DNA from: an uncultured Verrucomicrobia subdivision 3 bacterium
GTDB taxonomy: Bacteria > Verrucomicrobiota > Verrucomicrobiia > Limisphaerales > UBA11358
Reading direction: 5' to 3'
NCBI GenBank assembly: GCA_903870815.1
Contig: CAIQEI010000032.1
Coordinates: 1-54,286 of the forward strand
DNA length: 54,286 nt
A program made the translations under genes and the position numbers. This document shows positions 14,756 through 37,318 of this stretch, one piece after another; within the stretch, counting starts at the first letter, position 1; every line of letters starts with the position of its first letter. A model generated the notes under the pieces. That model was not told where the DNA came from. It ran no database searches and saw only the letters and a list, made by a program, of their open reading frames with translations.

Positions 14756-15907
14756 ATGGAATTTAAAAACCCTATTTGCTTCATGCGCAGGAACATTTTA
14801 TTCACGGCGGCGATTCCGGTCTTTTCCCTGGTCTTGCTGGCTCCGCTTTCCGGCTGCAAAAAGGCGGAGGCACCGGTCGCCGGGCCGCCCACTGTGCAGG
14901 TCACTCCGATTGTGCAACAGGATGTGCCGATTTATGGCGAGTCGGTCGGCACGTTGCAGGCGGATGTGAACGCGACGATTTCCGCGCAGGTGAGCGGTTA
15001 TCTGGTCAGCCGCAATTATGTGGAAGGCAGTTCGGTGACGAACGGTCAGGTGCTGTTCCAGATTGATGACCGCACCTACAAGGCGGCGCTGGATCAGGCG
15101 GAGGCCAAGGTTGCCAAGACCTCGATGGACGTCGAACGTTACACGCCGCTGGCCAAGACGCAGGCCATCAGCCAGCAGGAACTCGACGACGCTATCCAGT
15201 CCAACGCTGCCGCCATGGCAGCCGCCGAAGCGGCGCGGCTCAATTATCAATTCTGCCAAATCCTTTCGCCGGTGGATGGCGTGGCTGGCCTGGCGCAGGC
15301 GCAGGTCGGCAATCTGGTCGGGCCCGGTTCCGGCGCGCTGACCACGGTGCAATCGGTGGATCCCATCCGGGTCTATTTTTCCGTGTCCCAGCAACTGATG
15401 TCACAGCTCATGGAGCAGCGTATCGCGGCGGGCGGGAGAATTAATTCGCCCAGCGGAGCCGCGCTGGAGCTAACCCTGGCGTCCGGCACGGTTTATCCCC
15501 GTCAGGGAAAAGTTCGTTTTGCGGATAATCAAGTGGACGTGAAAACCGGCACCATCCGCGTGGTCGGCGAATTTGAAAATCCCGACCGGCTGCTCGTGCC
15601 CGGCATGTTCGTGCGCGTGCGCGCGCTGGTGGGCGTCGAAAAAAACGCCCTGCTCGTGCCGCAGCGCGCCGTGGCGGACCTGCAGGGCCGCAATCTCGTC
15701 GCCATCGTCGGCGCGGACAACAAGGTCAGCATCCGGCCGGTGATTACGGGCGCACGCGTGGGTGAGTTGTGGGTCGTCACCGGGAACGTGCGCGCCGGTG
15801 ACCAGGTGGTGGCCGAGGGCATCCAGAAATTGCGCGAAGGCGTGGAAGTTCACCCGACTCCCTATGAGGCCGCCGGTGGCGCGAACGGGTCCACCGCCGC
15901 CGAATGA
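14756..15907 (+). CDS. RND efflux periplasmic adaptor (MFP), lipoprotein
   Basis: Lipobox LSGC, ISAQVSGYL, LFQID, SPVDG, LVPGMFVRV. Start could be ATG 14783. Confidence 0.94.
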   Translation: MEFKNPICFMRRNILFTAAIPVFSLVLLAPLSGCKKAEAPVAGPPTVQVTPIVQQDVPIYGESVGTLQADVNATISAQVSGYLVSRNYVEGSSVTNGQVLFQIDDRTYKAALDQAEAKVAKTSMDVERYTPLAKTQAISQQELDDAIQSNAAAMAAAEAARLNYQFCQILSPVDGVAGLAQAQVGNLVGPGSGALTTVQSVDPIRVYFSVSQQLMSQLMEQRIAAGGRINSPSGAALELTLASGTVYPRQGKVRFADNQVDVKTGTIRVVGEFENPDRLLVPGMFVRVRALVGVEKNALLVPQRAVADLQGRNLVAIVGADNKVSIRPVITGARVGELWVVTGNVRAGDQVVAEGIQKLREGVEVHPTPYEAAGGANGSTAAE

Positions 15908-15930
15908 GCCGTCACCACGGTTTTTAAGTC

Positions 15931-18900
15931 ATGTCGAAATTTTTCATCAACCGGCCCATCGTCGCGATGGTGATTTCCATTTTGATGGTGATCATCGGCC
16001 TGGTGGCGATGTCCGGTTTACCCATCGCGCAATTTCCCAATATCGCCGATCCGCAGGTGCAGGTGAAGGCGACGTATCCCGGCGCCGACGCGCGCACCGT
16101 GGACCAGTCCGTCGCGACGCCCATCGAGCAGCAGATGTCCGGCGTGGACAACATGGAATACATGTATTCGCTCAACGCGAATAACGGCCAGTCCACGTTG
16201 ACGGTGGATTTCAACATCAAGACCGATCCCAACACCGACCAGATTCTGGCGCAGATGCGGTCCAGCCAGGCGAACTCGCAATTGCCCAGCGCCGTGATCA
16301 ACCAGGGCGTCACCGTGCAGAAATCCACCGCCGCGCCGCTGATCATGTTCGCGCTCTACTCGCCGGGCAACACCTACGACGGCGTCTTTCTCGCCAACTA
16401 CGCGGTCATCAACATCAACGACCAGATGACGCGCGTGCCGGGCATCGCCAGCGTGTCGGTTTTCGGCGCTGGCAACTATGCCATCCGCCTGTGGATTCGC
16501 CCGGACCGCCTCGCCCAAATGGGCGTGACCGTGCCCGAAATCATCAACGCCATCCAGGCGCAGAACACGGTGAATCCGGCCGGCCAGATCGGCGGCGAAC
16601 CGGTGCCGCCCGGACAGTCGTTCACCTATGCAGTGCGTTCGCAAGGGCGCTTGGAGACGCCGGAGCAATTTGGCGACATCGTGCTGCGCGCGGCGCCCGG
16701 CGGCTCGATTTTGCGGGTGAAAGATGTCGCGCGCATCGAGCTGGGCGCGCAAAATTATAACATGAAGGCGCGGCTGAACGGCCGGCCTTCCGCGCTCATC
16801 GCCCTCTATCAGCTGCCCGATTCCAACGCCGTGGACGCCGCCAACAAGGCCAAGGCGCTCATGGCGAAGTTGAAGGCGGATTTCCCGCCGGACATGGATT
16901 ACGTCGTGGCGCTCGACACGACCCTCGCCGTGACGGCGGGTATGAAGGAAATTGAGCACACGCTCGTCGAGGCCATCATCCTCGTCATCATCGTCGTCTT
17001 CATTTTCCTGCAAGGCTGGCGCGCGACGTTGATTCCGCTGCTGGCGGTGCCCGTGTCTCTCGTCGGCACGTTCGCGCTGTTTCCGTTGTTCGGGTTTTCC
17101 ATCAACACGCTGTCGCTCTTCGGTCTCGTCCTGGCCATCGGCTTGGTCGTGGACGACGCCATTGTCGTCGTCGAAGCCGTGGAACATCACATCGAAAAAG
17201 GCCTGTCGCCCAGGGATGCGGCGTTAAAGGCGATGTTCGAGGTCTCCGGCCCGGTCATGGCCATCGCCATCATTCTCGCCGCGGTGTTCGTGCCGACGGC
17301 GTTCATTCCCGGCATCACGGGCCGGCTCTATCAGCAATTCGCGGTCACCATTGCGGTATCGGTGGTCATCTCGGCCTTCAATGCGCTGACGCTCTCGCCG
17401 GCGCTGGCGGCGCTGCTGCTCCGCCCCAAAGTTCGCGGCACCGGCCCGGTGCAAAAGTTTTACGACTGGTTCAATAAATGGTTTGGCCGCGCCACGGATG
17501 GTTATGTCGGCATCTGCCGCGTACTCATCCGGAAAAGTTCCGTGTCGCTCCTGATTTTGCTTGGCATGACGGTGCTGGCCGGCCTGTTTGGCAAATGGAT
17601 TCCGACCAGTTTCCTGCCCAATGAAGATCAGGGCTACATTTATGCCGGCGTCCAATTGCCGGATGCCGCGTCCGCCCAGCGCACAGACGCCGTGATGCGG
17701 CAGGCGGAGGACATCCTGAAAAACACCCCGGGCGTGAAATATTATTCCTCGGTGATCGGCTACAGCATGTTGAGCGGCGTGCAGAACACCTACAGCGGCT
17801 TTTTTTTCATCACTCTCGAAGACTGGGACAAGCGCACCGCCCCGGCGGAGAAATTGCGGGCCATCATGATGCGCCTCAACCGGGAGATGGCCCAAATCCC
17901 CGGCGCCGTCGGCTTTGCCTTTTTGCCGCCGGCCATTCCCGGGGTCGGCACCTCGGGCGGGGCGACTTTTATCTTGGAAGATCGCGTCGGTAAAGGCGGG
18001 TCATTTCTGGCCGACAACCTGCAAAAATTCCTCGCGGCCGCGCGCCGGCGGCCGGAGTTGACGGGCATTTTCACCACCGCCCTGCCCTCCGTGCCGCAGG
18101 TTTATGTGGATGTGGACCGCGACCAGGTGCTCCAGCAGGGCGTGAAATTGCAGGACGTTTACCAGACCATGCAATGTTTCATGGGCGGCGCCTTCGTGAA
18201 TTATTTCAACCGGTTCGGCCGCCAGTGGCAGGTGTATGTGCAGGCCGAGGGCGACTACCGCAATAACGCCCAGAATCTCGGCCAGTTTTATGTGCTGAAC
18301 AACACCAACCAGATGGTCCCCCTAGGCGCGGTCACGCGCGTGCGCTCGACCACGGGACCGGAATTCACCATGCGCTACAATCTGCACGAAGCCGCGCAGA
18401 TCAACGCCTCGGCCAAGCCCGGGTACAGCTCCGCGCAGGCGATGAAGGCGCTGGAGGAAGTCTTCACCGAAACCATGCCGCCGGGCATGGGCTACGATTA
18501 CCTCGGCATGAGCTACCAGGAAAAGAAGGCGCAGCAGGGCGTCTCGCCGATGGTTATTTTCGGCTTCTCGCTCTTGTGCGTGTTCCTGATTCTGGCGGCG
18601 CAATACGAAAGCTGGACCCTGCCGTTCAGTGTGCTGCTCGGCACCCCCATCGCCGTCTTCGGCGCCTTTGCCGCGCTGCTGGTCGCGCATTTTGAAAACA
18701 ATGTCTATGCCCAGATCGGGCTGGTGATGCTCATCGGGCTCTCGGCCAAGAACGCCATTCTCATCGTCGAATTCGCCAAGATGAGCTACGAGCAGGGCCA
18801 GCCGCTGATGGAAGCCGCGCTGGCCGGCGCCAAACTGCGCCTGCGGCCGATTTTGATGACCAGTTTTGCGTTCATCCTCGGCTGCGTGCCGCTGGCGCGC

Positions 18901-24257: not shown

Positions 24258-25685
24258 ATGAACCGGCTTCTGGCTATATTCTTAGCTTTATCTTTAGCTC
24301 TTTCAGCGGACGGGTATTCCACCCCTCCTATTCAACATAATCCTTGGACGACTAATTCAGCAGCAAATCTACCCGCCCCATCAACTGTACTCACCGCTGG
24401 CCAAATAGCTAGAGTGGATACCAGTTTGTTTGCCAGCAATAACATAAACTTGCAGGCTATGATTAATTCCCTTCCAGCGGCGACAAAAACCCCGCTCCCT
24501 GGAGGTGGTACGATTGAGCTGGGCAAAGGTGTTTTCTATACCTCCTCAGGCAACCTGTTTACCGGCAGTGGCGGTCAGGCGTTACGCATCATCGGCCAAG
24601 GAATCAACCAGACTTATTTGGTGTTCACAAACCCGGGCGACGGTTTAACGGTAAATGGCACTCTTCCCTACAACACGTCGCTTGAATTAAAAGACATCAC
24701 CGTAGCCGCGAGTTACGATACCGCCAATTTCTTGATAGTAAACCACAGCACATCGGTCACGACTTTTAAAGAGGCGTGCTTCGCCTACTGGCCAGCTTTG
24801 TTGTGTCAAAGCCTTCCTTTGAATGTATGTGCCTACGGTAGCGCCGCAGCCACACTGTTGTGTGGTGTTAATTTGGCAGACTCAGAAGGATTGCTTGACA
24901 CCTTTGAGGACTGCTATTTCACCTCGTTAGGTGCGGGTGTAAGGGTGAACAATGACCATTTGCGAATGATAAACTGCCAATTCACGGCCGTCGGGGTCGC
25001 GCAGGACGCAATGTATTTTTATACAGGCGGTTATGGCGGCGCTTTACCGCCAGACCCCAGAGCTGCCAGTTTGCTCACCAACAACTGGGTGACTGTCGGA
25101 ATACCAGACCTTAATGCCAGAGCCTGCATTACGGTGACGGGAGGGTTTGATGATGATGAGTTTTACGGTTGCTACTTTGTATTTTCTCACGCAATTATCC
25201 TGCTTGACCGCTCCCCCATCACTTCGGGTTACATGGGGCATGAGGTCTTCGCCGGTGGGCACATTGAAGGGTTGGTTTATCGCACCATTGTCGCCAGCAA
25301 CACTCCCAATTGTCCCGCAAGTTTATCGGGCGGTACAATTCAGTTCGTTAATTGCGACAATTTTAATTATTCGGCTTATGGCGCGGACGCTGACCAGATT
25401 GCGACTTGGGGTCAAATAACCGGCGGTGGGAAGGTTGCATATTCCACTGCCACCGCACCCAATGTGTTTGAACAAAACAGTAAAAACAATCTGTCATACG
25501 ATTTTTATGCTGGTGGCACTAAAGTGCTGTCGCTATCCAACAACACTGTGGTCATACCAAACCTCGTTGCAAATGAAATCAATATAAATGCTCCTACATC
25601 TTCCCCTCCAGCTTCAATTTCATCTTTTAAGGGTGGTATAACTATCACAAACAACGGCGTGGTTTATCACATTCCGATATATTAA
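24258..25685 (+). CDS. Secreted pectate-lyase-like beta-helix / tailspike-like protein
   Basis: Signal peptide; LQAMIN...GGGTIELGKGVFY...LRIIGQG beta-helix cap motif; Asn/Thr/Gly-rich body; AT-rich codon use. Confidence 0.6.
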   Translation: MNRLLAIFLALSLALSADGYSTPPIQHNPWTTNSAANLPAPSTVLTAGQIARVDTSLFASNNINLQAMINSLPAATKTPLPGGGTIELGKGVFYTSSGNLFTGSGGQALRIIGQGINQTYLVFTNPGDGLTVNGTLPYNTSLELKDITVAASYDTANFLIVNHSTSVTTFKEACFAYWPALLCQSLPLNVCAYGSAAATLLCGVNLADSEGLLDTFEDCYFTSLGAGVRVNNDHLRMINCQFTAVGVAQDAMYFYTGGYGGALPPDPRAASLLTNNWVTVGIPDLNARACITVTGGFDDDEFYGCYFVFSHAIILLDRSPITSGYMGHEVFAGGHIEGLVYRTIVASNTPNCPASLSGGTIQFVNCDNFNYSAYGADADQIATWGQITGGGKVAYSTATAPNVFEQNSKNNLSYDFYAGGTKVLSLSNNTVVIPNLVANEININAPTSSPPASISSFKGGITITNNGVVYHIPIY

Positions 25686-26095: not shown

Positions 26096-26701
26096 CTATT
26101 CCGGCATTTTCAGCAACTGCAGCCCGCTCATCGGCTGTGGGCTCGCGCCGAGACCGGCCCTTACTTTTTTAACATCGTCGCCTGTCACCGGGCCGGCGTT
26201 GTTGCCCCAACTGCTTCGGATGTAGGTCAGCGTGGCGGCCAGATCTTCATCCGGCAACGCTGCCCCCATCGCGGCCATCGCCAGTCCCCAGTCCTGGCCT
26301 TTGACCCGGATAGGCCCGTTGAGGCCAGCCAGCGGTATGTGGATCAGCCGGTTGACGCCCGCGCAATTAACCATTTCTGACCCCGCCAGCGGCGGTGCCT
26401 GCCCGGGTTTGCCCAAACCATCGGTCCCGTGGCAGATGCCGCAAACGGCTTCGTAAGTCCTCTTTCCGCGCGCCAGCGCCGCCGCCGCCCCGGACTGCGG
26501 CTGGTAGGCGTCCAATTTTTCCGCGCTATAATAGGGCGAATAAACCTTGGCGTTGAACCAGCCGCCGTGCAGGTCGAAATAATAGCCGCCGAGAAAAAGC
26601 AGCAGGAGCGTGGTGACGATGATCCACATCGGCGCGGCCGAACGCGTGGCGGTCGGTTCACCGGTAGTCGGGAGGGAACAGGCTTTGGTTTCGTCGCTCA
26701 T
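26096..26701 (-). CDS. Membrane-anchored monoheme cytochrome c
   Basis: N-terminal TM, CGICH, PPLAGS, Met-ligand region AMAAM, TYIRSSWGN. Confidence 0.92.
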   Translation of the reverse strand: MSDETKACSLPTTGEPTATRSAAPMWIIVTTLLLLFLGGYYFDLHGGWFNAKVYSPYYSAEKLDAYQPQSGAAAALARGKRTYEAVCGICHGTDGLGKPGQAPPLAGSEMVNCAGVNRLIHIPLAGLNGPIRVKGQDWGLAMAAMGAALPDEDLAATLTYIRSSWGNNAGPVTGDDVKKVRAGLGASPQPMSGLQLLKMPE

Positions 26702-26704
26702 CGC

Positions 26705-27589
26705 TTATTTCGTGGCCGCGAGCGGGGTGAACGGCGCTTCGTAAAGCGGCACGTTGGCCTTGAGGCTCAATAGATAGGCGGCAAGTTCCTTCGCCTCCGG
26801 CTTCGGCACCACTTCGTAGCCGGCTTCGGCGGCAAATTCCTTGGGCAGCGTCAAAGCCTCGGGCGAGGCTTCACCGTTGATCTTCGGGCGGACTTCAAAG
26901 AGAAACTTGAAGGACGGCATGGTCGACCCCGGCGTGATGGATTTCGGCGCGTAAAGATGCTGCAACTGCCAGCGGGCATCTGGCGCGCGGACGCCGATGT
27001 TCGCGAGGTCAGGTCCCGCGCGCAGGCTGCCGAGCTGAACCGGCTGGTCGTAAAGATAATCCGCTGCGACGCTCAGGCGCGAACCCCAGCCGCGCGTGAT
27101 ATCCGGGCCAGTGGCGACGATCCGCGTCTCGGAATTGACGCCGGCGGCCTTAAGGCGGTCGCCCATCTCCGAGGCGATGTCCTTGTCGGTGCAAACCAGC
27201 AGCGCCTTGGGCACTCCTCCGTTCCAGCCCTTGAGATTGTCGCTCATGGCGTTGGTGTAATCTGCCAGTTCCGGCAGCACAAACAGCGATTTGGCGAAAG
27301 CCGTGAATTCATCCGGCTTGTGCGTGCCCAGGTCGGTCAAGGTGACTTCAAAGGCCGCCCCGTCCTGGCGGACCTGTTCCGTGTGGCACGCGGCGCAGCC
27401 ATAGGCCCGATACACCTGCAAGCCGAGCGTGGCGGCGCCGGTGCGCTGCAGCGGCCAGTTGTCGGTGGATTGCAGAACCACGGTCTGCTTTGCGCCGCCG
27501 AGCTGCAGCGTGGGCGCGAGCACAAATCCGCACCACGAAGCGCCGAGCGCTACCAGGGTGGCGATAAAGATTGAGATGCCGCTTTTCAT
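26705..27589 (-). CDS. cbb3 oxidase subunit II (CcoO/FixO)-like cytochrome c with inserted domain
   Basis: N-terminal TM, GCAACHTEQVR, GPDLANIG, HLYAP...GSTMPSF; about 80-aa insertion after the heme motif. Confidence 0.85.
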   Translation of the reverse strand: MKSGISIFIATLVALGASWCGFVLAPTLQLGGAKQTVVLQSTDNWPLQRTGAATLGLQVYRAYGCAACHTEQVRQDGAAFEVTLTDLGTHKPDEFTAFAKSLFVLPELADYTNAMSDNLKGWNGGVPKALLVCTDKDIASEMGDRLKAAGVNSETRIVATGPDITRGWGSRLSVAADYLYDQPVQLGSLRAGPDLANIGVRAPDARWQLQHLYAPKSITPGSTMPSFKFLFEVRPKINGEASPEALTLPKEFAAEAGYEVVPKPEAKELAAYLLSLKANVPLYEAPFTPLAATK

Positions 27590-29049
27590 GATTTCACCTC
27601 CCCTGCTCCGCTCCGGAGTGTCACCGGGGCCGTCTCAAGCGGCGACTTGATATAGGCAATGACCGTCTTGGCCAGACCGAGCTTCCACTGAATGGTCATG
27701 ATCAGTATGTTCGCGGCGAACAGCAGCGCGCCGAGCAGGATCAATAGCTGGCCGGTGGTGCTGATGCGCAGAAATTTCAAGGCCGCGGAATTGACCTCGG
27801 CGAAGGGAACCGTAGCATCCGCTAGCTTCCCGCCTTGCGCCATGCCGGCGAGCACCAGCGGCACGACCAGCAGCAGCACGCCGGCGGTGCCCAGCCAGGA
27901 ATGCAGCCGTACGGCTTTTGGCAGCGGCAGCGGCTTGCCCATCACCGCCGGCAGCAGCTCATAAACCGCGCCGAACAGGATCATCGCCGTGAACCCGAGC
28001 AGTTGCAGTTGCGTCTGGGCGGTGCCGAACCAGGTGAACTCCAGGATGCGGCTGTATTGCGGACACGCGGCCGAGACGTAAAGAACGCCCGAAATGATGA
28101 AGCACAGCACGCCAAACCTGATGAAGCAGAATGGCCCGCCTTTGCATGCAACGCCGGCCCCGCAAACTGTCTTCCAGGTGACGATCGTGATCGCCAGCAA
28201 TGGCAACAGCGTCAGCGCCGCCGCTACGCTGCTCAACACCGGCAGCCACGCCGGCACCGGCGCGCTTTGCGGTATTCCGCACCAGGTGCCGAAGAAAATA
28301 AGCGTGAGAAAGGCGAACAGCACGTAACCCGAATTGGCGAGCGGCCGGCCGGCGATTTTCGGCAGGAAGTAAAATGCGGTTCCGATGCCCATCAGCGCCA
28401 GCCACACAAAGACCAGGTTGTTCGCAAACCACCAGGCGATGATCGGCTGCACCACGCCGCGCGGCACTTGATTGGAATTCAAAAAAAGATTGGCCGTCGA
28501 ATAGATCCACGGGAACCAGAGCAACGCCGCCAGCAGGAACCAGTGCGAGGGATACAGCGGGTTTTCCTTGCGCCAGCCAAACGTGGCCGCCGCCGAAACC
28601 GCGATCAGCAGGAACGCCGCGAAGAGGAGTACCGCCGCCGCCCGCGGATATTCCAGCCAGGTGTGACCGGTGCTATCGCCCAGCAGAATGCCGGCCGTGC
28701 CCACGAAGACGCCGAGATGCCAGAGGTTCGCCGCGACCACCGGTACGAGCGGCAGCGCGAGCGGTGACCGGCTCAACCGCGCAAATATCCACAGTGCCAC
28801 GCCCAGCGCCGCCGGGATGCAGAATCCGTAGAGCACGGCGTCATTCGCCGCCGGTGCCACGCGGCCGTAGGTGAACAGCGGACAGCCGCCCAGAAAATCC
28901 GGCGCGTGAAATTTGATGCCGGCGATGAGGCCGAGCCCCAGCCCGACCACCAGCCAGACCGCCGCGCCGCCAAACAGCGCCAGCAGCGGCACGCGCAACG
29001 AGGCTTCAAGTTCGTTCGGGCGGGAAGTTGTGTTCTCGGTCGGGTTCAT
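27586..29049 (-). CDS. cbb3 oxidase subunit I (CcoN)-like 12-TM protein lacking the metal-ligand histidines
   Basis: CcoN framework retained (TYGRV.P, WLEYP, LYPSHWF, WWF.NN, FYFLPK, FTW, LLGF, HSWL) but His ligand positions are substituted. Confidence 0.85.
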   Translation of the reverse strand: MNPTENTTSRPNELEASLRVPLLALFGGAAVWLVVGLGLGLIAGIKFHAPDFLGGCPLFTYGRVAPAANDAVLYGFCIPAALGVALWIFARLSRSPLALPLVPVVAANLWHLGVFVGTAGILLGDSTGHTWLEYPRAAAVLLFAAFLLIAVSAAATFGWRKENPLYPSHWFLLAALLWFPWIYSTANLFLNSNQVPRGVVQPIIAWWFANNLVFVWLALMGIGTAFYFLPKIAGRPLANSGYVLFAFLTLIFFGTWCGIPQSAPVPAWLPVLSSVAAALTLLPLLAITIVTWKTVCGAGVACKGGPFCFIRFGVLCFIISGVLYVSAACPQYSRILEFTWFGTAQTQLQLLGFTAMILFGAVYELLPAVMGKPLPLPKAVRLHSWLGTAGVLLLVVPLVLAGMAQGGKLADATVPFAEVNSAALKFLRISTTGQLLILLGALLFAANILIMTIQWKLGLAKTVIAYIKSPLETAPVTLRSGAGEVKS

Positions 29050-29399
29050 TCGAAAGATTCGGCCTTCACCGGCGCCAGCGATTTCTCCACGCGCTCATTT
29101 AAGTCGGCGCGCGCGGCGGCGGGATTCCGCCCTCTCTGCGCCGCCAGTTGCATCGCGGTTTCGATCGGCAGCCGCACGATGCCGCGCTGGGCGTCAATGA
29201 TCGCCGGCCGGTTCAGGCAATTTTCCTCCTCCGCGAGGATTTCAGCCAGCGCCTTGGTGCGCGCGGCGGCGGGATCGGCGTCAATGGCTGGAACGGGCAA
29301 GGTCAGCTTCACGGCGACGGTCACCGCGGCGAACAGCACGCTGGCAATGAGCAGCCCGATCGCTGCCCCGGACGCGCGGTTGATGGTTTGATAATTCAT
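29046..29399 (-). CDS. ActG-like single-TM subunit of alternative complex III
   Basis: ATGA overlaps on both sides; IDAQRGIVRLPIETAMQL matches the D...G.VRIPI..AM motif of ActG-type subunits. Confidence 0.7.
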   Translation of the reverse strand: MNYQTINRASGAAIGLLIASVLFAAVTVAVKLTLPVPAIDADPAAARTKALAEILAEEENCLNRPAIIDAQRGIVRLPIETAMQLAAQRGRNPAAARADLNERVEKSLAPVKAESFE

Positions 29400-30646
29400 C
29401 GGGCACCTCCGGCGTTGGCTTCTGTCAGGTCGCGCACGGTGTTTTGACTCACGCCCATCGCTTCCAGCAGGCGCGGGTCGCGCTGCGGATACGGCGGATG
29501 CGCGTTGAACTTCTTCAGAAAAACCTTTGCCAGCAGTCCGCCCATGAACATCAGGCAGCCGATGGGCAGCCAGACCCACTTGAAATGATAGCCATAGGGA
29601 TGCAGCGCCGGGAAAATGTTGAAGCCCAGGTCCAGCGCGTGCATCAGCCCGATCCACAGGCAGACGGGTATGATGACCTTGAAATTCATCTTCACTTTCT
29701 CCGGCAGCAGCACGAAGAACGGGATGAAGAAATGGCCGAAAATCAAAACCAGGCTCAAGCCCCACCAGTTGCCGCGTTCCCGGATGAGATACCAGAAGGT
29801 CTCCTCCGGCATGTTGGCGTTCCATACCACAAAGTATTGGGCGAACTCTGTGTAAGCAGAGAACAGCGTGAACCCGAGCAGCAGCACGCCGAGGAAATAA
29901 AAATAGTTCCGCTTCATGACCGGCGCGATGATGCGCTGGCGAACCAAAACCGCCGCGATGACGTAGACCGTGGCCAGTCCGATCCACGCGCAATCGGAGA
30001 AGAAATAAACGCCGTAGATGCAGGAAAACCACTGGTAAGACGTCGCGTTCATCCACAATACGCCGGAATACGTCAGCGTCAGCGCATACGCCACGATCCC
30101 CCAGCCGGAATAGAACCGCAGCTTGCGCGTGCAGTCAGCCGCTCCGGTTTCATCCTGTTTCAGCGACCAGCGGCTCAACTGTGATGAGAGCAGCCACCAG
30201 ATCCCGAAGAATAGCGCCGAGGCTGCCCAGAAACCGGCGGTGGTGAACACCGGCAGCTTGGCCGCCACTAGATTGTTCGTGGCGGAATCCAGCGTCATCC
30301 ACTGGTAAATCTTCGGCCCGAGCAGGCCGATCGGCAAGAACAAAATGGCCAACCACGGGAACAATAACGTCGCAAGGTGCTCGCAAAACCGGCGGATACC
30401 GACCGACCAGCCGGCGTCCGTCAGATGATGCACCATCACCAGAAACAACGCGCCCAGGGCGAGGCTGTAATAGAACATGAACGCCAGCAGCCAGGAAAAA
30501 CCGAATTCATGCAGGTCGTTCCGCTGGTAACTCAGCGCCGCGCCGATGGCGCACAAAATGCCACCGACGACCATCAGGCGGGCCGGCAGCTTCCGCCAGC
30601 GGGACAGGTCCAGCGGCGGCGGCAGATGAGTGGTGTCGTGACTCAT
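29396..30646 (-). CDS. actF: Alternative complex III subunit ActF (membrane)
   Basis: About 10 TM; AGWSVGIRRFCE, WFSCIYG, FAQYFVVWNANMPEET; position in the act cluster. Confidence 0.88.
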   Translation of the reverse strand: MSHDTTHLPPPLDLSRWRKLPARLMVVGGILCAIGAALSYQRNDLHEFGFSWLLAFMFYYSLALGALFLVMVHHLTDAGWSVGIRRFCEHLATLLFPWLAILFLPIGLLGPKIYQWMTLDSATNNLVAAKLPVFTTAGFWAASALFFGIWWLLSSQLSRWSLKQDETGAADCTRKLRFYSGWGIVAYALTLTYSGVLWMNATSYQWFSCIYGVYFFSDCAWIGLATVYVIAAVLVRQRIIAPVMKRNYFYFLGVLLLGFTLFSAYTEFAQYFVVWNANMPEETFWYLIRERGNWWGLSLVLIFGHFFIPFFVLLPEKVKMNFKVIIPVCLWIGLMHALDLGFNIFPALHPYGYHFKWVWLPIGCLMFMGGLLAKVFLKKFNAHPPYPQRDPRLLEAMGVSQNTVRDLTEANAGGAR

Positions 30647-30647
30647 A

Positions 30648-31301
30648 TTATTTCAGGGCGGCGGACTGCTCCGCCGTCAAATCGTTGGTCGTTCCCAGCC
30701 AGCTTAATTGCAGCGCGCGCAGATAGGCGATCACCGCCCAGCGGTCCTCCGTCGGCAGCAGCGGGCCGGCGGCGCCCATCAGGCCCTTGCCGTAGCTGAC
30801 CGTGTTGAAGATCTCGCCGTCCGTCATCTCGACGATGCGCTGGTCGTGCAGGTTCGCCACCGCCGCCATGACGCCGATTTTCTTCGTGATGCCGTTGCCG
30901 TTGCCCAGCCGTCCGTGGCATGGCGCGCAATAAATATCAAACCGTTCGCGTCCGCGCTGGAGCAACGCTTCGTTCACGGCCAGCGGGTTCGTCTCAATAA
31001 AGTTGGTCATGCCGGCAACCCGGCCCGTGTTCACCGGCGAATCTTCAAAGCGGTAAACGCTGCCATTCGCCGTCTCGATCGGCTGGCTGCGCGCTACTGT
31101 GCCGGCGGGGGGCAACTGTGAGCTGAGGCCGTTCGTGAAAAAACGGAACGGCTCCTGCGGCCGCAATTTCGCCTGGCGGTCCATGTCGGGAAACAGCTCA
31201 AACGGCGGCTGGCGCATCATCCGGCCCTGCAAACCGAGCATCCCGAACAACGCCGCGCCGATGGCTGCGCCAATCAATAAAATGGAGACGTAATAGCGCA
31301 T
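30648..31301 (-). CDS. actE: Alternative complex III subunit ActE (monoheme cytochrome c)
   Basis: FPDMDRQAKLRPQ, PAGTVAR, RGRERFDIYCAPCHG, GKGLM, DRWAVIAYLRALQ. Start at ATG 31301 (TAATG overlap with actD). Confidence 0.9.
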   Translation of the reverse strand: MRYYVSILLIGAAIGAALFGMLGLQGRMMRQPPFELFPDMDRQAKLRPQEPFRFFTNGLSSQLPPAGTVARSQPIETANGSVYRFEDSPVNTGRVAGMTNFIETNPLAVNEALLQRGRERFDIYCAPCHGRLGNGNGITKKIGVMAAVANLHDQRIVEMTDGEIFNTVSYGKGLMGAAGPLLPTEDRWAVIAYLRALQLSWLGTTNDLTAEQSAALK

Positions 31302-31840
31302 TAGTCGTGGTCCTCCACCAGGGCGACGTGTGCGCCGCCGATCCCTTCCAGCAATTTCCGGGTCTCCGTGGCGCAAAACTTTTCATCCTGCGCGCCGATG
31401 ACCAGTATGAACTTGTCGCGCGAGACGAGGTCAAACCGCTTGTGGTCCAAGAGCGGATGATGCAGGCGCGGGAGCTGGTTGAGGCCGAGCATTCCCACGA
31501 GCGCGCCGATCGCCCCGCCCATTATGAGCATGATGTAGGACGGCACAAACGTCATCGGCACGCTGAACATCGGCTTGCCGCCCACGATGAGCGGATAATC
31601 AAACGCGTTCGTGAACCAGAGCAGGCCGACCACCGAGGCAAAAGCGCCCGCGCCCATCGCGAGCGAGACCCAGCCCACCAGCGAATTGCCCAGTTGCATC
31701 ACCTGGTCCATGCCGTGAACCGGGAACGGCGTGAATGCGTCCCAGCGGCGGTACCCGGCGTCGCGGACTTTTTTCGCCGCGCGCAAAATGGCCGCGGGCG
31801 AATCAAATTCCGCGCTGATCCCGTAAAGCTTTTCACTCAT
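31301..31840 (-). CDS. actD: Alternative complex III subunit ActD (DUF3341)
   Basis: AEFDSP, DAFTPFPVHG, DYPLIVGGKP, LPRLHHP. Confidence 0.92.
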   Translation of the reverse strand: MSEKLYGISAEFDSPAAILRAAKKVRDAGYRRWDAFTPFPVHGMDQVMQLGNSLVGWVSLAMGAGAFASVVGLLWFTNAFDYPLIVGGKPMFSVPMTFVPSYIMLIMGGAIGALVGMLGLNQLPRLHHPLLDHKRFDLVSRDKFILVIGAQDEKFCATETRKLLEGIGGAHVALVEDHD

Positions 31841-33272
31841 GGCCGGCCCCCTTTGTTGCGCCGCCCAGCGGATGATGCGGGTCGGCTTCGGGCATGACCC
31901 CCTTCACTTCGGAGATGGCGATGACCGGCAGGAATTTCACGAACAGCAGATAGAGCATGAAAAACGCACCCAGCGTGCCGACGTATAGGCCGATGTCCCA
32001 GATCGTCGGCATGTATTTTCCCCAGTTCGCCGGCAGAAAATCCTGGTACAGCGAGCCGACCACGATCACAAAGCGTTCGCTCCACATGCCGATGTTGATC
32101 AGCAGGCCGATCACAAAGAGCGCCCACAGATTGGACCGGATTTTTTTGAACCAGAGCAGTTGCGTCACGCAGACGTTGATGCCGATCAAAATCCAGCCCA
32201 TCACCATGTAGGTATGCCCGAAGAGCCGGTGCCCGAACACCCAGCGTTCATACGGGTCGCCGCTGTACCAGGCGATGAAAAACTCCATCATGTAGATGTA
32301 GTCAATGATCAGGCCGCTGACCAAAGCCAGCTTCGCCACCGTGGCGATGTGGCTTTTGGTGATGATGTTTTCGAGGTTACACAGCTTGCGCAGCGGAATC
32401 AGCAGCACCAGCATCATGCCGAAGCCGCAGAACACCGCGCCGATGACGAAGTAGAGCGGGAATATCGTCGCGTGCCAGCCCGCAATCTGCGCGGTGCAGA
32501 AGTCGAGACCGACGATGGAACTCACCGTGAACACCAGCAGCGTGCACAGGCCGCACAGCACCACGTAGGCCTTTTCATAGTTATGCCACTGCCGCGCCGA
32601 ACCCGTCCAGCCCATCGCAAGAAAAGTGAAAATGGTTTTGCGGATGCGCGTGGTCGAGCGGTCGCGCAGGACGGCAAAATCCGGAATCATCCCCATGAAC
32701 CAAAACAGAGACGAGACCACGAGATAAGTGTTCACTGCAAACACGTCCCACATCAGCGGCGATTTGAATTGCGGCCATAGGCCGTTTGAATTCGGCACCG
32801 GAAACATGAACCAGTCGAACCAGGCGCGGCCGACGTGAATGGCCGGATACAATCCCGCCATCATCACGGAAAAAACCGTCATCGCCTCGGCCATGCGGCC
32901 GATGGTGGTGCGCCAGTGCTGTTTGGTCAGAAATAGCAGCGCCGAGATCAGCGTGCCCGCGTGCGCGACGCCAACCCACCAGATGAAGTTGACGATATCC
33001 AGGCCCCACATCACTGGATGGTTATTTCCCCAGACGCCGACGCCTGTGAACACCTGATAAAACAGACAGACCGGGAAAATGACCGTGGCCGCAAAGGCCG
33101 CCGGCAGAAATACAATCCACCACCAGAGCGGCGTCTTCGCCTCGGCAAACGCGGACAACTTGTCCGTCAGCCAGCCAAGTCCCTGGTTGCCTTCAACCAC
33201 GGGTGCGCGACCCAGCTCCGCCGGCGGCGCGAGCCGTTTCAATTCTTCAAGATTGGTCACGGAGTCAGCCAT
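31833..33272 (-). CDS. actC: Alternative complex III subunit ActC (NrfD/PsrC family)
   Basis: [62 protein letters not shown]. Confidence 0.94.
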
Positions 33273-36200
33273 TAGCTGGTTCCTTTCTTGGTCAGGCTGC
33301 CGTTTTCATATTCCTCGGTGCTGAAGGGATCATGATAATCCGGCATATGCGGATTCGGATTGCGGATCCGCGCCAGGTACGTCGTGCGCGGCTTAGTGAG
33401 CAAATCCGCGAGCACGGAATAATTCTGCGGCAGCAATTTCAATTTCGACACCGAGCTGTCGGGGTCGCTGACATCGCCAAAAGTGATCGCTCCCGCCGGA
33501 CACGCCTGCTGGCACGCGGTCTTCGGCACCGTTCCCGCCGCCTCTGATAGCCGCACGTGGTCGCTCGCGCCCGCCTTCGCTTTCTGCGCAATCTTCGCGT
33601 GCTCGATGCGCTGCGTGCAATAGGTGCACTTCTCCATGACGCCGCGCATGCGCACCGTTACGTCGGGATTCTTTGAGAGCTTAATCAGGTCCCATTCGTC
33701 TTCCGAGCGCATCCCGCTGTTCGGATCCTTCCACCAGCGCAGCAAATCCCATTCGCCATCCGTCTTGTGCGTTAGCGTGGTTGAATAGATCGTCCCCTTC
33801 AGCTCGGTCAATGGCCGCTTGTTGAAATCTAGATAATTGAAGCGCCGGACCTTGTACGGGCAGTTGTTTGAGCAATAGCGCGTGCCGATGCAACGGTTAT
33901 ACGCCATGACGTTCAAACCTTCCTGGTCATGGACGGTCGCGTTCACGGGGCAGACGCTTTCGCACGGCGCCGCTTCGCATTGCTGGCACAGCATTGGCTG
34001 GTTGACTGCCTGCACGTCGTCAATCCATTCCGCAAACTGCTGCTTCTCGTCGGTCTGGTTTTCGTCCGACCGGGGATCAAAGATGCTTGGATTATTTTTC
34101 CGCTTCGGATCGCTGGTGTAATAGCGGTCAATGCGCATCCAATGCATCTCCCGGCCGCGCTTCACCTGGTCTTTTCCGACGATCGGAATGTTGTTCTCGC
34201 TCTGGCACGCGACCACGCAGGTCCCGCACCCGACACAGGCGTTCAAGTCCACGGTCATGCCCCACTGGTGCAATGCCGTCTTCTTCGCCTCGTCGAGCGG
34301 GTTCGGATACAGCGACTGAACCACCGGCGGTTCGACGCCATGAAATTTTTCCTGGGCGAACGTCGGTTCCTTGATGAACTCGTCGAGGTTCGCCTCGCGC
34401 ACCGCCGGCCGGCCTTCCATACTCCAATGATGCTGCGTGCAGGCAAGTGTATAAGTCTCGCCGGTCTTTTTGATCGTCGCGCCGGTCTCGATATATTTGC
34501 CGAAAAAAATCTTGTAGGCGTTGAAGCCGACGCCAGTGCCGACGCGTCCGGCTTTCTCGCGACCGTAACCCAGCGCGAGGCCGAGCGAATAATCCGCCAT
34601 GCCCGGCTGCGTCCAGATCGGACCGGAAACGGTTTTGCCGTTCAAAGAAATTTCGACGATGTCGCCATTCGCCACGCCAATATCACGCGCCGTCTTGCGG
34701 CTGATGAGCACGGCGTTATCCCACGTCATCTTCGTGATCGGATCCGGCAACTCCTGCATCCAGCCGTTGTTTGCGTAACGCCCGTCGTCCAACTTCGCGT
34801 CGCGATAGAAAATTACTTCAAAGCCATTCGCTGAAGGTGGGGAATAGCTTTTAATGAATGGAGCCTCGATGGCCTTTCCATTATCATTCGTCGGCACGGC
34901 CTTTGCTGATTGCACATAACCAGCAAACAAAAACTTCTTCCAGTTTTCATCCGTGTCGCCAAAACCCGAACGGACAATTTCGTAGGCGCTGGTTTGTGAT
35001 TCACCAGCAATGCGCGCGATAAATTCAAGTTCGTTTAAGCCGCCAAAGAGCGGTTGGATAAGCGGCTGCACCGGAACCATCGATCCATCGCTCGTGATTG
35101 CATCGCCCCATGATTCTAAATAGTGCGTTGCTGGAAAATTCCATTTGGATTTTTCCGTTGTTTCGTCCTCATAGTAACCGAGGCGAACAACGGATTTTGC
35201 TTTCGATGACCAGTTCAGATTATAAGCTGGGTTGCCGCCAAGAATGATCAGCGTATCAATTGAATCGCTGTCGAGATTCTTCAAATCCGCGCCTGCAATT
35301 TCCGCCGGTTGAGACAAATAGACGCTTCCATTAGCATTGAGCGAACTCGGCATCAGGTCGATTGTATTACCAAAAGCACCGAGTGCTGAATTAATTGCCA
35401 ATGCGAGTAAATGAACTTCAAGCGGTTGACGCTGGCCGGTAACGACCAAGGCATTTCCGGGATTTGCAGCTAAATCTTTAGCGCATTCGGAAATCCATTT
35501 TGCATCCAGACCGGCTGGCACGGTGACTGGTGCTGATTTAGCTTGCGGAAGTGTCAACCCAAAGACCTCAAGAGAAATTGCTTGTGCAATCTGGCCAATC
35601 AAACTTGCGGCAACACGCAGCCGGTGATCCGCGCTCGCGCCGGTGAGCGTGAACAACGATTCCACCGCGTAAAGCCGGCTCATCCCCTCGCCTGCCTTGC
35701 GGCCGGCGGCAAATTTGCGGATGTGATTATGGCTGTCATCCTCGCCGCCGAGAAAATCGCAGTCCAGCGACAGAATGACCTTTGCCTTGTCGAAATGGAA
35801 CACCGGCTTCACCGGCCGGCCGAACGCCTGCGTCGCCGCGCGCTGGTGGATGCCGGAATCAATCGCATCGTAGGTGAACCATTGCGACTTCGGGAATTTG
35901 TCCGCAATGATTTTTTGCAGCCGCGCGCGAGATGGCGAAGTGCTGCTTTCGGCGAGGAAAGCCAGTCCTTCGCCGGATTTCGCCGCAAACTTCTTCGATA
36001 GCTCGTCAAGGAACCCCAAGGCTTCTTCGCGCGAAACGACTTTGCCATCATGCTTGAAATGCCGCGCGCGGTCGGGATCGTAAAGGTCCAGGATCGATGC
36101 CTGCGCGTAGCGGTCGGTGCTCCCGTTGCTGCCGGGATAAAGTGAATTGCCTTCGATTTTGACCGGCCGGCCTTCGTAAGATTTGACAACCAATGGAATC

Positions 36201-36523
36201 GCGCCGGTGCGCGTGGGCATGGCGGTCGCAAAATACTGCGCGTCGCCATACGTATAATTCTCCGGCTGCTTGCCGTAAGGTTCGAGCTTCTCTTCCGGCC
36301 GGCGGCAGCCTGCGCCGAGCGTCGCGATGCCGGCAAAGGCAAACGACGCCGACATGATTTTCAGGAAATTGCGGCGGCTCTGGCCGTCCTCCACCATCTC
36401 GCTGGCGCCGACGGGAAATTCGCGATGCAGCCAGTCCTTGAACTCCGGCGTATCCGCCAGTTCATCCAAGCTCCGCCAGTAGCGCTTGCCAGTTGCTGAA
36501 TTTGATGTTGGCGAATGGTTCAT
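33272..36523 (-). CDS. actB: Alternative complex III subunit ActB (molybdopterin-oxidoreductase-like plus Fe-S domains, Tat-exported lipoprotein)
   Basis: YWRSLDEL, SRRNFLK twin-Arg, AGC; CVGCGTCVVAC, CQQC...PCESVCP, CIGTRYCSNNCP, CTYC...ACQQACP. Confidence 0.95.
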   Translation of the reverse strand: MNHSPTSNSATGKRYWRSLDELADTPEFKDWLHREFPVGASEMVEDGQSRRNFLKIMSASFAFAGIATLGAGCRRPEEKLEPYGKQPENYTYGDAQYFATAMPTRTGAIPLVVKSYEGRPVKIEGNSLYPGSNGSTDRYAQASILDLYDPDRARHFKHDGKVVSREEALGFLDELSKKFAAKSGEGLAFLAESSTSPSRARLQKIIADKFPKSQWFTYDAIDSGIHQRAATQAFGRPVKPVFHFDKAKVILSLDCDFLGGEDDSHNHIRKFAAGRKAGEGMSRLYAVESLFTLTGASADHRLRVAASLIGQIAQAISLEVFGLTLPQAKSAPVTVPAGLDAKWISECAKDLAANPGNALVVTGQRQPLEVHLLALAINSALGAFGNTIDLMPSSLNANGSVYLSQPAEIAGADLKNLDSDSIDTLIILGGNPAYNLNWSSKAKSVVRLGYYEDETTEKSKWNFPATHYLESWGDAITSDGSMVPVQPLIQPLFGGLNELEFIARIAGESQTSAYEIVRSGFGDTDENWKKFLFAGYVQSAKAVPTNDNGKAIEAPFIKSYSPPSANGFEVIFYRDAKLDDGRYANNGWMQELPDPITKMTWDNAVLISRKTARDIGVANGDIVEISLNGKTVSGPIWTQPGMADYSLGLALGYGREKAGRVGTGVGFNAYKIFFGKYIETGATIKKTGETYTLACTQHHWSMEGRPAVREANLDEFIKEPTFAQEKFHGVEPPVVQSLYPNPLDEAKKTALHQWGMTVDLNACVGCGTCVVACQSENNIPIVGKDQVKRGREMHWMRIDRYYTSDPKRKNNPSIFDPRSDENQTDEKQQFAEWIDDVQAVNQPMLCQQCEAAPCESVCPVNATVHDQEGLNVMAYNRCIGTRYCSNNCPYKVRRFNYLDFNKRPLTELKGTIYSTTLTHKTDGEWDLLRWWKDPNSGMRSEDEWDLIKLSKNPDVTVRMRGVMEKCTYCTQRIEHAKIAQKAKAGASDHVRLSEAAGTVPKTACQQACPAGAITFGDVSDPDSSVSKLKLLPQNYSVLADLLTKPRTTYLARIRNPNPHMPDYHDPFSTEEYENGSLTKKGTS

Positions 36524-36542
36524 GCTAGGGCGGCAGCGGAAA

Positions 36543-36641
36543 ATTTACGATTTACGATATACGATTTACGAGCCACAAAAGAATCCACGCAGCGTCCGGC
36601 AAGGGACAGCTCTCGTAAATCGTATATCGTATATCGTAAAT
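36543..36641. repeat. Inverted pair of 4x heptamer arrays forming a long hairpin
   Basis: (ATTTACG/ATATACG)x4+AG at 36543-36572 and its reverse complement at 36612-36641 (29/30 match), 39-nt loop. Confidence 0.9.
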
Positions 36642-36655
36642 ACATATGCATGTGG

Positions 36656-37318
36656 TTAGCGATGGCACGCCGAGCAGCTTTGCAGTGATTCAACTTTCCA
36701 GTCGTGCACAAACTTTTTCCCGTTCACCTCCTGCAAATGTTCGGCTTCGGCGGCGTTCGTGCTCCACTGCCAGCCGAGATCCGTGACTTTGCTTGGTGGA
36801 CGAATATTGGCCGCGGGATCGCGATGGCAATCCAGGCAGAAACTCATGCTCATGGACTTGACCTCGCGCACTTCGTCCATCTGGTCCACGCGCCCGTGGC
36901 AGGCCACGCAACTGATGCCGCGCGTGACATGGACCGAGTGGTTGAAATAAACGTAGTCCGGCACGATATGCACCTGCACCCACGGCACTGGCGTGTTGTT
37001 CGCCGCGCTGTCGCGGATGATTTGCAGCCGCGGATCATCCTTCAGCACCTGGTTATGGCAGTTCATGCAGGTGGACGCGCCGGGAAGATTCGAGAACCAG
37101 GATTTTTCCACCCCGTTGTGGCAATAGCGGCAGTCCACGCCGAGCTGGCCCGCATGGATTTTGTGCGAAAACGGCACCGGCTGCACCGGCTGGTAGCCGG
37201 CGCGGGTGTACTTGGGCGTGAGATAATACGTCACGCCCGCCGCCACGCCGCCGCCGGCCAGGCCCGCTCCGATCAAGAGCACCAGCGGCAAACTGTTTGT
37301 CCACTTCGGAAAAATCAC
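36656..37318 (-). CDS. actA: Alternative complex III subunit ActA (pentaheme cytochrome c)
   Basis: N-terminal TM, QPVPFSHKIH; five CxxCH (CRYCH, CMNCH, CVACH, CLDCH, CSACH). GTG start. Confidence 0.94.
   Translation of the reverse strand: MIFPKWTNSLPLVLLIGAGLAGGGVAAGVTYYLTPKYTRAGYQPVQPVPFSHKIHAGQLGVDCRYCHNGVEKSWFSNLPGASTCMNCHNQVLKDDPRLQIIRDSAANNTPVPWVQVHIVPDYVYFNHSVHVTRGISCVACHGRVDQMDEVREVKSMSMSFCLDCHRDPAANIRPPSKVTDLGWQWSTNAAEAEHLQEVNGKKFVHDWKVESLQSCSACHR

Follow-up and report, generated by a model that had tools for sequence, protein, structure and literature searches.

The DNA analyzed here (the window) is a stretch of 54,286 nucleotides, contig CAIQEI010000032.1 of assembly GCA_903870815.1, from an uncultured Verrucomicrobia subdivision 3 bacterium of the order Limisphaerales. 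The genome to which it belongs (G000) is 96% complete and is distributed over 176 contigs. On the minus strand, from 37318 to 26096, the window carries ten co-oriented open reading frames (ORFs) with almost no spacing between them. Six of them encode the subunits of an alternative complex III (ACIII), ActA to ActF, and are followed by a small protein (G), by homologues of the cbb3 oxidase subunits CcoN and CcoO (N and O) and by a membrane-anchored cytochrome c (cyc). The residues that hold the heme and copper cofactors in CcoN are replaced in N, and both cytochromes retain their heme-binding motif. The features of the operon are the following:

36656..37318, minus strand: actA, membrane-anchored pentaheme cytochrome c matching Pfam cytochrome c7/c3 families, with five CxxCH motifs and one N-terminal hydrophobic helix.
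33272..36523, minus strand: actB, with a variant twin-arginine translocation (TAT) signal (TIGR04519, residues 13-55) and a molybdopterin-oxidoreductase-like domain fused to a 4Fe-4S domain; QrcB/QrcC-like and Fer4 matches.
31833..33272, minus strand: actC, NrfD-like quinol-binding membrane subunit (PF03916; 6f0k_C, E 1.2e-146; 6btm_C, E 3.2e-136).
31301..31840, minus strand: actD (PF11821 ActD, E 4e-53).
30648..31376 (ORF as listed), minus strand: actE, monoheme cytochrome c (PF13442) with one CxxCH at residue 150.
29396..30646, minus strand: actF, second NrfD-like membrane subunit (6f0k_F, E 2.7e-56; also 6lod_F and 6btm_F).
29046..29399, minus strand: G, one-helix protein of 117 aa with a conserved periplasmic motif G-x-V-R-L-P-I-x-x-A.
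27586..29049, minus strand: N, CcoN homologue lacking all six His ligands and the cross-linked Tyr, a pseudo-oxidase subunit I.
26705..27589, minus strand: O, monoheme CcoO homologue with an N-terminal helix (PF02433 FixO, E 1.5e-20), matching the CcoO chains 6xkw_o and 3mk7_B.
27113..27358, minus strand: insertion in O (its residues 78-159), about 80 residues, predicted to form a small alpha/beta domain.
26096..26701, minus strand: cyc, membrane-anchored monoheme cytochrome c in the place of CcoP (PF00034/PF13442), with CGICH at residue 87 and one N-terminal helix.

All the features by which an ACIII is recognized were found in the first six products: a pentaheme, anchored ActA, an ActB with a TAT signal and 4Fe-4S domain, two NrfD-like subunits, ActD and a monoheme ActE. 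ActC and ActF are homologous to chains of the solved ACIII structures 6f0k, 6lod, 8k9e and 6btm, and the act cluster is present in one copy in the genome. According to the ORF coordinates, the sole clear gap is a 132-nt spacer between ActA and ActB. ActB and ActC overlap by 1 nt and ActC and ActD by 8 nt, and 1 nt separates ActE from ActF. ActD and ActE overlap by 1 nt provided that ActE begins at the ATG at 31301, which is probably its true start, the listed TTG at 31376 lying too early. Overlaps of 4 nt were identified at the ActF/G, G/N and N/O junctions, and a 3-nt spacer between O and cyc. Promoter-like sites between 25500 and 38100 numbered 6 for 4.6 expected and terminator-like sites 21 for 15.9, neither above chance, so the case for co-transcription is built on gene spacing.

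N was aligned by HMMER with the CcoN chain of Pseudomonas stutzeri (3mk7_A) over residues 30-456. All six histidine ligands are replaced in N (H60 by A68, H207 by N210, H257 by P260, H258 by Q261, H345 by Q345 and H347 by Q347), and so is the cross-linked tyrosine (Y251 by G254). The ligands are numbered as in the P. stutzeri protein, and the columns themselves are legible in the alignment (HTN, GHN, PHH and GHVH in the target). N scored 118.9 bits with COX1 and 110.8 bits with the ccoN model TIGR00780, whose cut-off is 583.15. Its AlphaFold2 (AF2) model, built from a 30-row alignment, reached a predicted local distance difference test (pLDDT) value of 91.4 and a predicted template modeling (pTM) score of 0.91, and has the 12-helix fold of a subunit I. 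In Foldseek searches the best matches of this model were CcoN chains (3mk7_A, template modeling (TM) scores 0.85/0.89, root mean square deviation (rmsd) 2.3 over 456 columns), and NorB and the subunits I of A- and B-type oxidases were clearly weaker. With its fold retained and its chemistry lost, N appears unable to bind heme b, heme b3 or CuB in the canonical way. It should likewise be incapable of reducing O2 or NO, or of pumping protons by the heme-copper mechanism, and we consider it very probable that N is not an oxidase.

O carries CAACH at residue 65, and the methionine of its TMPSF motif (M224) is invariant in a 12-row alignment; O is thus a monoheme CcoO with an extra insertion. A single CxxCH was present in O in all 75 complete Limisphaerales ORFs and in 19/19 ACIII-linked ORFs of the class-level set (other families of Verrucomicrobiia), and in cyc in 64/64 and 19/19, respectively. 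The c-heme motifs are kept regardless of the state of N. Having one CxxCH, cyc is not a diheme CcoP; since the ACIII-linked relatives with a catalytic N also have a monoheme cyc, this trait separates the whole ACIII-linked clade from canonical cbb3 oxidases. The insertion of O, which spans 60-90 residues between CxxCH and a G-x-D-I-x-R-G-W-G motif in Limisphaerales and could be a docking surface, is absent from the solved CcoO and from the Methylacidiphilum protein. AF2 predicted it as b-a-a-b-a-b with a pLDDT of 72-86, within a poor overall model of O (62.8); its best fold matches were ClpS and the L7/L12 C-terminal domain, with Z of 7.3-7.9, a middling value within the range of common arrangements. 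Elsewhere in the genome, contig C21 encodes at 15497-16078 (locus L135, 7168-8088, minus strand) a membrane-anchored protein of 306 aa that contains two cytochrome c domains. The first half of this protein shares 57% identity with cyc, and its gene adjoins that of a thioredoxin-like protein; it is a further candidate electron carrier.

For G no match was found in Pfam, NCBIfam or the PDB, and in the Atlas it matched unnamed Verrucomicrobiota clusters only. It lies between actF and N in all 80 Limisphaerales loci described below and was also seen in some catalytic and Methylacidiphilum loci. A predicted complex of N with G scored 0.01 (mark 0.32), a value that weighs neither for nor against contact between the two. 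The position and single helix of G fit ActG; it matched no solved chain at E<=10, but ActG was left unmodelled in 6f0k (PMC5928083). An initial annotation of the window had called this gene 'actG-like', a name that holds for position and one-helix topology and finds no backing in family, PDB or named Atlas matches. Its other statements on the locus agree with the ORF coordinates, the comparison with 3mk7_A and the motifs of O and cyc. These were that ten co-oriented, tightly coupled genes (actA to actF, G, ccoN-like, ccoO-like and cytochrome c) end at 26096 facing a convergent ORF, that the subunit of the heme-copper family is unable to hold its cofactors, and that both downstream cytochromes keep CxxCH and Met ligands, of which the Met was compared in O.

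We looked for homologues of N at increasing distances. A word-indexed protein search returned 1051 proteins at E<=1e-5, of which the best 120 were 64-100% identical to N and all about 480 aa long. The six ligand columns of these 120 hold a single His overall, and at 110 positions 118 or more of them share the same residue. An exhaustive search among representatives of clusters at 50% identity found 1472 of them at E<=1e-3, of which 317 reached E<=1e-30. In a set of 126 rows taken from it (the query and 125 of the best 150 representatives, those of 440-560 aa) the ligand columns are hypervariable, and only two rows have the full ligand set. A scan of one genome per species revealed 80 loci with 49-82% identity, nearly all of them from metagenome-assembled genomes that bear the label Verrucomicrobia subdivision 3, Limisphaerales or Verrucomicrobiia. 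All 80 have actF, G and N in the order of the window and an intact reading frame of N; O follows N in 78, the remaining two being cut by contig ends, and all ten genes are present in 51. No His occurs at the six ligand columns in 79 of these loci, and one His in the other. The cyc gene is present in 69 loci, cut off by contig ends in 5 and truly missing in 6, that is, in 6 of the 75 with DNA past O. The loci without cyc despite a continuing contig are L039, L049, L062, L073, L075 and L078, and the third subunit of the module is thus dispensable in some lineages.

The ratio of nonsynonymous to synonymous substitution rates (dN/dS) was estimated by the Nei-Gojobori method (NG86) on 14 non-overlapping close pairs, taken closest first from 73 candidate pairs. 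It ranged from 0.063 to 0.274 for N, from 0.073 to 0.284 for O and from 0.126 to 0.454 for G (14 pairs each), from 0.058 to 0.247 for cyc (9 pairs) and from 0.035 to 0.187 for ActA (6 pairs); ActE was set aside because some of its values were spoiled by the choice of start codon. Purifying selection on N is as strong as on the redox subunits. The loss of ligands across the 120 homologues and the 80 loci rules out a strain-specific decay of N.

The search was extended to 301 genomes across the phylum, 91 of which contained a match to N at E<=1e-20. The matches fall in two groups, one of 160-293 bits and 30-38% identity, the other of 75-116 bits and often in frames of 700-860 aa, as expected of canonical and fused CcoN(O). 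Ligand columns were read in 71 genomes other than that of the window, comprising the first score group and a small group of genomes of 2.2-2.4 Mb. The six histidines and the tyrosine are complete in 41 of these 71 genomes from other Verrucomicrobiia families, and N is degenerate in 30, Methylacidiphilum among them. The flanking DNA was fetched in 40 of the 71 cases; 39 of these have act genes upstream, and the remaining locus is cut by the contig end. The catalytic ACIII-linked relatives are 31-38% identical to the N of the window. In trees built without the ligand columns (FastTree with 157 rows and a quick IQ-TREE run with 71 rows), a single clade unites the ACIII-linked sequences and excludes seven canonical CcoN from this phylum, with supports of 99 and 100, respectively. 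Since intact CcoN proteins occupy the same operon slot behind actF and belong to this one clade, the N of the window descends from a working ACIII-linked cbb3 oxidase.

Both trees require four changes between the catalytic and the degenerate state, three of them forced by well-supported branches. However, a tree holding all 52 degenerate rows together, a group defined after inspection of the tree, was not rejected by the approximately unbiased (AU) test (log-likelihood 40.4 lower, p 0.203), so the trees do not fix the number of independent losses. Intact, partly decayed and fully decayed forms coexist within the clade. None of 138 degenerate rows keeps the three CuB histidines and none the tyrosine; the partly decayed rows, three of the 138 (L116, P0162 and P0205), retain both heme-b histidines and have lost the CuB and heme-b3 ligands. 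These three, and L005 and L006 with L116, may be 'heme b only' intermediates, half-way stages of the decay. Conservation in 85% or more of the degenerate rows was seen at 39 positions, mostly W, G, P, R and F; at every one of them the residue is also the majority one of 12 catalytic members of the clade, and no conserved polar residue specific to degenerate N was seen in this comparison (138 rows with 12). At ten other positions, where catalytic and canonical forms do not vary, the degenerate ones are relaxed (the equivalents of R65, N70, E130, Y226, S277, Y317, G324, W385, R430 and G434); several of these residues presumably bind heme propionates or border the proton path of cbb3. These patterns suggest that no new active site has arisen in degenerate N.

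The terminal oxidases of the organism are encoded away from the operon. One strong COX1 match (437 bits) lies on contig C17 in a cluster ctaB-coxI-coxIII-x-coxII; because its CoxII has no CxxCH, the oxidase is of the aa3 type and needs a cytochrome c donor. A cytochrome bd is encoded on contig C176. CcoG (TIGR02745), a factor in the maturation of cbb3 oxidases for which a genome without a functional cbb3 would have no need, had no match in the genome of the window, which at 96% completeness does not prove its absence, and was not found in three other genomes either (G279, G048 and G216). By contrast, it scored above the cut-off in all five genomes tested with a catalytic ACIII-linked N. The only degenerate-N genome tested that has CcoG is G237, which carries about 2 kb away a separate canonical C-type gene of 817 aa. 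This canonical, fused CcoN(O)-type gene near ccoG (contig C1, 840640-845353) coexists with a degenerate ACIII-linked N. At least one strong COX1 was found in each of the five other degenerate-N genomes tested.

Three known systems can be set beside the operon. The catalytic ACIII-linked cbb3 oxidases of other Verrucomicrobiia share with it the slot after actF, the three subunits (CcoN, monoheme CcoO and monoheme anchored cytochrome c) and the clade. They differ in their six histidines and tyrosine (in the 41 of 71) and in the CcoG of the five genomes tested, whereas the lineage of the window has no ligands and CcoG was not found. The canonical cbb3 oxidases of P. stutzeri (3MK7) and Rhodobacter capsulatus (6XKW) have in common with it the subunit I fold (TM 0.85-0.89, rmsd 2.1-2.6) and a CcoO core with CxxCH and Met, at an identity of 22-23%. 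Unlike them, the operon of the window encodes an N without ligands for heme b, heme b3 and CuB and without the tyrosine, a monoheme cytochrome instead of the diheme CcoP, and a CcoO with an insertion. The ACIII systems with aa3 or caa3 oxidases of Flavobacterium johnsoniae (6BTM) and Rhodothermus marinus (6F0K) show the same cofactor motifs in actABCDEF, and oxidase genes often follow their act clusters. In them, the oxidase receives its electrons from the ActA and ActE hemes with no soluble carrier in between (PMC5928083, PMC8552683) and no pseudo-subunit precedes the oxidase, whereas the gene order of the window interposes a cofactor-less C-type subunit I and two c-type cytochromes.

The degenerate form also occurs in cultured methanotrophs. 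The N of locus L114 is identical to the NCBI entry 'cytochrome oxidase [Methylacidiphilum kamchatkense Kam1]' and shares 72% identity with 'cbb3-type cytochrome c oxidase subunit I [Ca. M. infernorum]'. In an independent alignment with 9g6b_A the seven positions read S, E, S, S, H, F and V, with only one CuB histidine left, and the M. infernorum protein has the same pattern. The L114 genes run actA-F, a G-like ORF, N, O and cyc, with coxI-coxIII-coxII 135 nt further on. In L115, from the Methylacidiphilum-like genome G132, about 7 kb lie between actF (about 18150) and N (about 10835); a nos (N2O reductase) cluster has been reported inside the ACIII cluster of M. caldifontis IT6 (10.1101/2024.01.15.574570, a preprint).

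The Kam1 genome paper describes ACIII genes co-located with cbb3-type oxidase genes and links them to growth at low oxygen (PMC6688271). A FEMS review makes the same statement on ACIII and cbb3 and, citing Refojo 2010, places a C-type oxidase beside ACIII only in these methanotrophs and in Opitutaceae (PMC8498564). For strain IT6, 'one cbb3 (high-affinity TO)' (TO, terminal oxidase) is given, with transcripts alike under oxic and anoxic growth (10.1101/2024.01.15.574570), which points toward N, O and cyc not following oxygen if the gene is the same. For Limisphaera, a paper of 2026 likewise includes a cbb3-type oxidase (PMC13608581), and many N proteins are named 'cbb3-type cytochrome c oxidase subunit I' in NCBI, JGI and UniRef. 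We infer that the 'cbb3' of these papers is the N gene, because it is said to adjoin the ACIII genes, because an identical protein is so named and because G279 has no other C-type match (1 candidate). The five COX1 matches of G279 fit the 2 aa3, 2 ba3 and 1 cbb3 stated for a sister strain. According to a PNAS survey of the superfamily, gNOR was the first member to have replaced one active-site histidine (PMC11214002). Our literature search turned up no paper noting the loss of ligands in CcoN, a remark that older bioenergetics papers (Refojo 2010, Sousa 2012, Ducluzeau 2008, Buschmann 2010) could hold, and no structural, cofactor-less homologue from the heme-copper superfamily.

These results also bear on what the initial annotation had proposed beyond the locus. 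It had expected true terminal oxidases elsewhere in the genome, which are the aa3-type oxidase on C17 and the cytochrome bd on C176, and a survey of act neighborhoods for a histidine-less ccoN with ccoO and cytochrome c yielded the 80 loci with actF-G-N and the 51 with all ten genes. It had held that intact ligands in orthologues from close relatives would speak for a strain-specific decay: no set is intact among the 80 loci, close relatives have lost their ligands too and N is under purifying selection, and only more distant families are intact, in 41 of 71 genomes. Its view of the arrangement as uncharacterized stands for the loss of ligands, whereas ACIII with 'cbb3' genes is already in print for methanotrophs and Opitutaceae, where it is taken as a functional oxidase (PMC8498564, PMC6688271). 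Three points are new with respect to it: the pseudo-module belongs to a large, old and selected family; catalytic sisters are encoded in the same operon slot; and papers and databases alike take the dead form for a high-affinity oxidase that works, cultured methanotrophs included.

Enzyme folds that survive the loss of their catalytic centre inside an electron-transfer complex are exemplified by domain B1 of ActB in ACIII and by the core proteins of mitochondrial complex III. Domain B1 is homologous to the catalytic subunits of complex iron-sulfur molybdoenzymes (PMC5928083). We consider it probable, on balance, that N is a pseudo-oxidase scaffold derived from an ACIII-linked cbb3 oxidase, holding c-type hemes as an electron exit of ACIII toward aa3 or other acceptors. 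ACIII would be joined to a three-subunit module of N, O and cyc descended from that oxidase, and the cbb3-like enzyme encoded behind actF would form a supercomplex with it. Supercomplexes of ACIII with aa3 or caa3 oxidases have been described, in which the hemes of ActA and ActE hand electrons directly to the oxidase (PMC5928083, PMC8552683). Where other oxidases took over the reduction of O2, the catalytic centre of subunit I may have decayed. N would have been retained because the complex needs a platform for O and cyc, and perhaps also for the stability of ACIII. N would thus carry O, and usually also cyc, next to ACIII. Electrons could then run from menaquinol through the FeS clusters of ActB, the hemes of ActA and ActE to the hemes of O and cyc, and from these to the aa3-type oxidase, whose genes lie on a different contig in this genome and immediately after the module in Methylacidiphilum, or to further reductases in the periplasm. 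It is the structure of the operon and the pattern of conservation that suggest the putative attachment of the module to ACIII, the role of N as a scaffold and the direction in which electrons would flow.

Several observations weigh against this explanation. In Flavobacterium and Rhodothermus ACIII reaches aa3 or caa3 without such a module (PMC8552683, PMC5928083), so a relay is not needed in principle. In 79 of the 80 Limisphaerales loci the fetched flank contains no A-type oxidase gene, the exception being L066, with one about 2.5 kb downstream. In the class-level set, A-type cox genes directly after cyc and on the same strand were more frequent in degenerate (4/9: L114, L115, L128 and L130) than in catalytic loci (1/10: L132); this counts in favor of the explanation, but the comparison is one of few and partly related genomes in which L114 and L115 belong to one genus. 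A wire of two hemes is not universal, since cyc is missing in 6 of 75 continuing loci. The three degenerate rows with both heme-b histidines imply that some members may carry one heme, so that 'cofactor-less' describes the lineage of the window rather than the whole family. The selection on N (omega about 0.13), as strong as on the redox subunits, may hint at a role more specific than anchoring. Finally, contact of N, O and cyc with ACIII or with one another is a prediction from gene order and conservation.

The main rival, which we regard as unlikely, is an independent membrane-anchored cytochrome c complex that shares the ACIII promoter, N anchoring O and cyc so that these serve as a freely diffusing general shuttle to oxidases and periplasmic reductases. 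The retained heme motifs and the location of oxidase genes elsewhere in most loci are compatible with it, as are the 7 kb between actF and N in L115 and the nos cluster in the ACIII cluster of M. caldifontis (10.1101/2024.01.15.574570). However, the 4-nt overlaps from actF through G and N to O and the strict co-linearity in 80/80 loci suggest co-assembly in fixed stoichiometry, and the catalytic ancestors occupy the same operon position.

We give little credence to N being an ion-translocating or conformationally coupled module driven by ACIII, like the antiporter-like subunits of complex I. Whether and how ACIII pumps is unsettled in the literature (PMC8498564, PMC5928083), and strong purifying selection on a 12-helix protein would suit such a role. 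Yet the equivalents of E130, Y226, S277, Y317 and R430, invariant in catalytic C-type proteins, are relaxed in degenerate N, and no conserved polar residue is peculiar to it. Marginally less credible still is that N binds a redox cofactor through non-canonical ligands and represents an oxidoreductase of a new type. Many family members have H48 (96/126) and H383 (88/126), and three members keep both heme-b histidines. But these two residues are no less common in catalytic relatives, so H48 and H383 are not replacement ligands; moreover, the former ligand columns are hypervariable in the 126 cluster representatives, the CuB trio and the tyrosine are each kept in 0/138 degenerate rows and CcoG was not found in the genome. 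That N is a functionless relic heading for loss has next to no chance of being right: all catalytic residues are gone, but the dN/dS of 0.06-0.27 in 14 pairs, the intact frames in 80 loci, the 317 clusters at E<=1e-30 and the 110 near-invariant positions contradict it.

The genes around the operon are unrelated to it. Upstream lies a phosphoglucose isomerase gene on the opposite strand. Downstream, the convergent ORF of 475 aa (24258-25685, plus strand) had no Pfam match; its stretch has 47.5% G+C, compared with about 60% around it, and may be foreign DNA. Thirteen loci of the species scan (L046, L047, L051, L052, L054, L061, L065, L079, L086, L102, L104, L108 and L111) carry record titles of Bifidobacteriaceae, Bifidobacterium, Methylomirabilota, Aquilonibacter or Sulfotelmatobacter and contain a verrucomicrobial act-N-O operon at 49-65% identity; wrong labels or mixed bins are likely.

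The chances appear to us evenly balanced that this is the first cofactor-less family of the heme-copper superfamily, in which a dead CcoN, perhaps more than once within Verrucomicrobiota, turned into a structural subunit that an ACIII-cytochrome c (-aa3) assembly cannot do without, and that the 'high-affinity cbb3' of Methylacidiphilum and Limisphaerales does not reduce O2. If N has no metal centre, published inferences of high-affinity respiration would need revision (PMC6688271, PMC8498564, PMC13608581, 10.1101/2024.01.15.574570). The reach within Verrucomicrobiota would be wide, with 30 of 71 sampled carriers outside the order of the window and all 80 Limisphaerales loci. The electron exit of ACIII and its partners are still an open question (PMC8552683), and a heme-bearing module bound to its operon is a concrete candidate route. 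The module can be tested in existing cultured strains, and the clade would offer a natural series for the evolution of an enzyme into a structural subunit.

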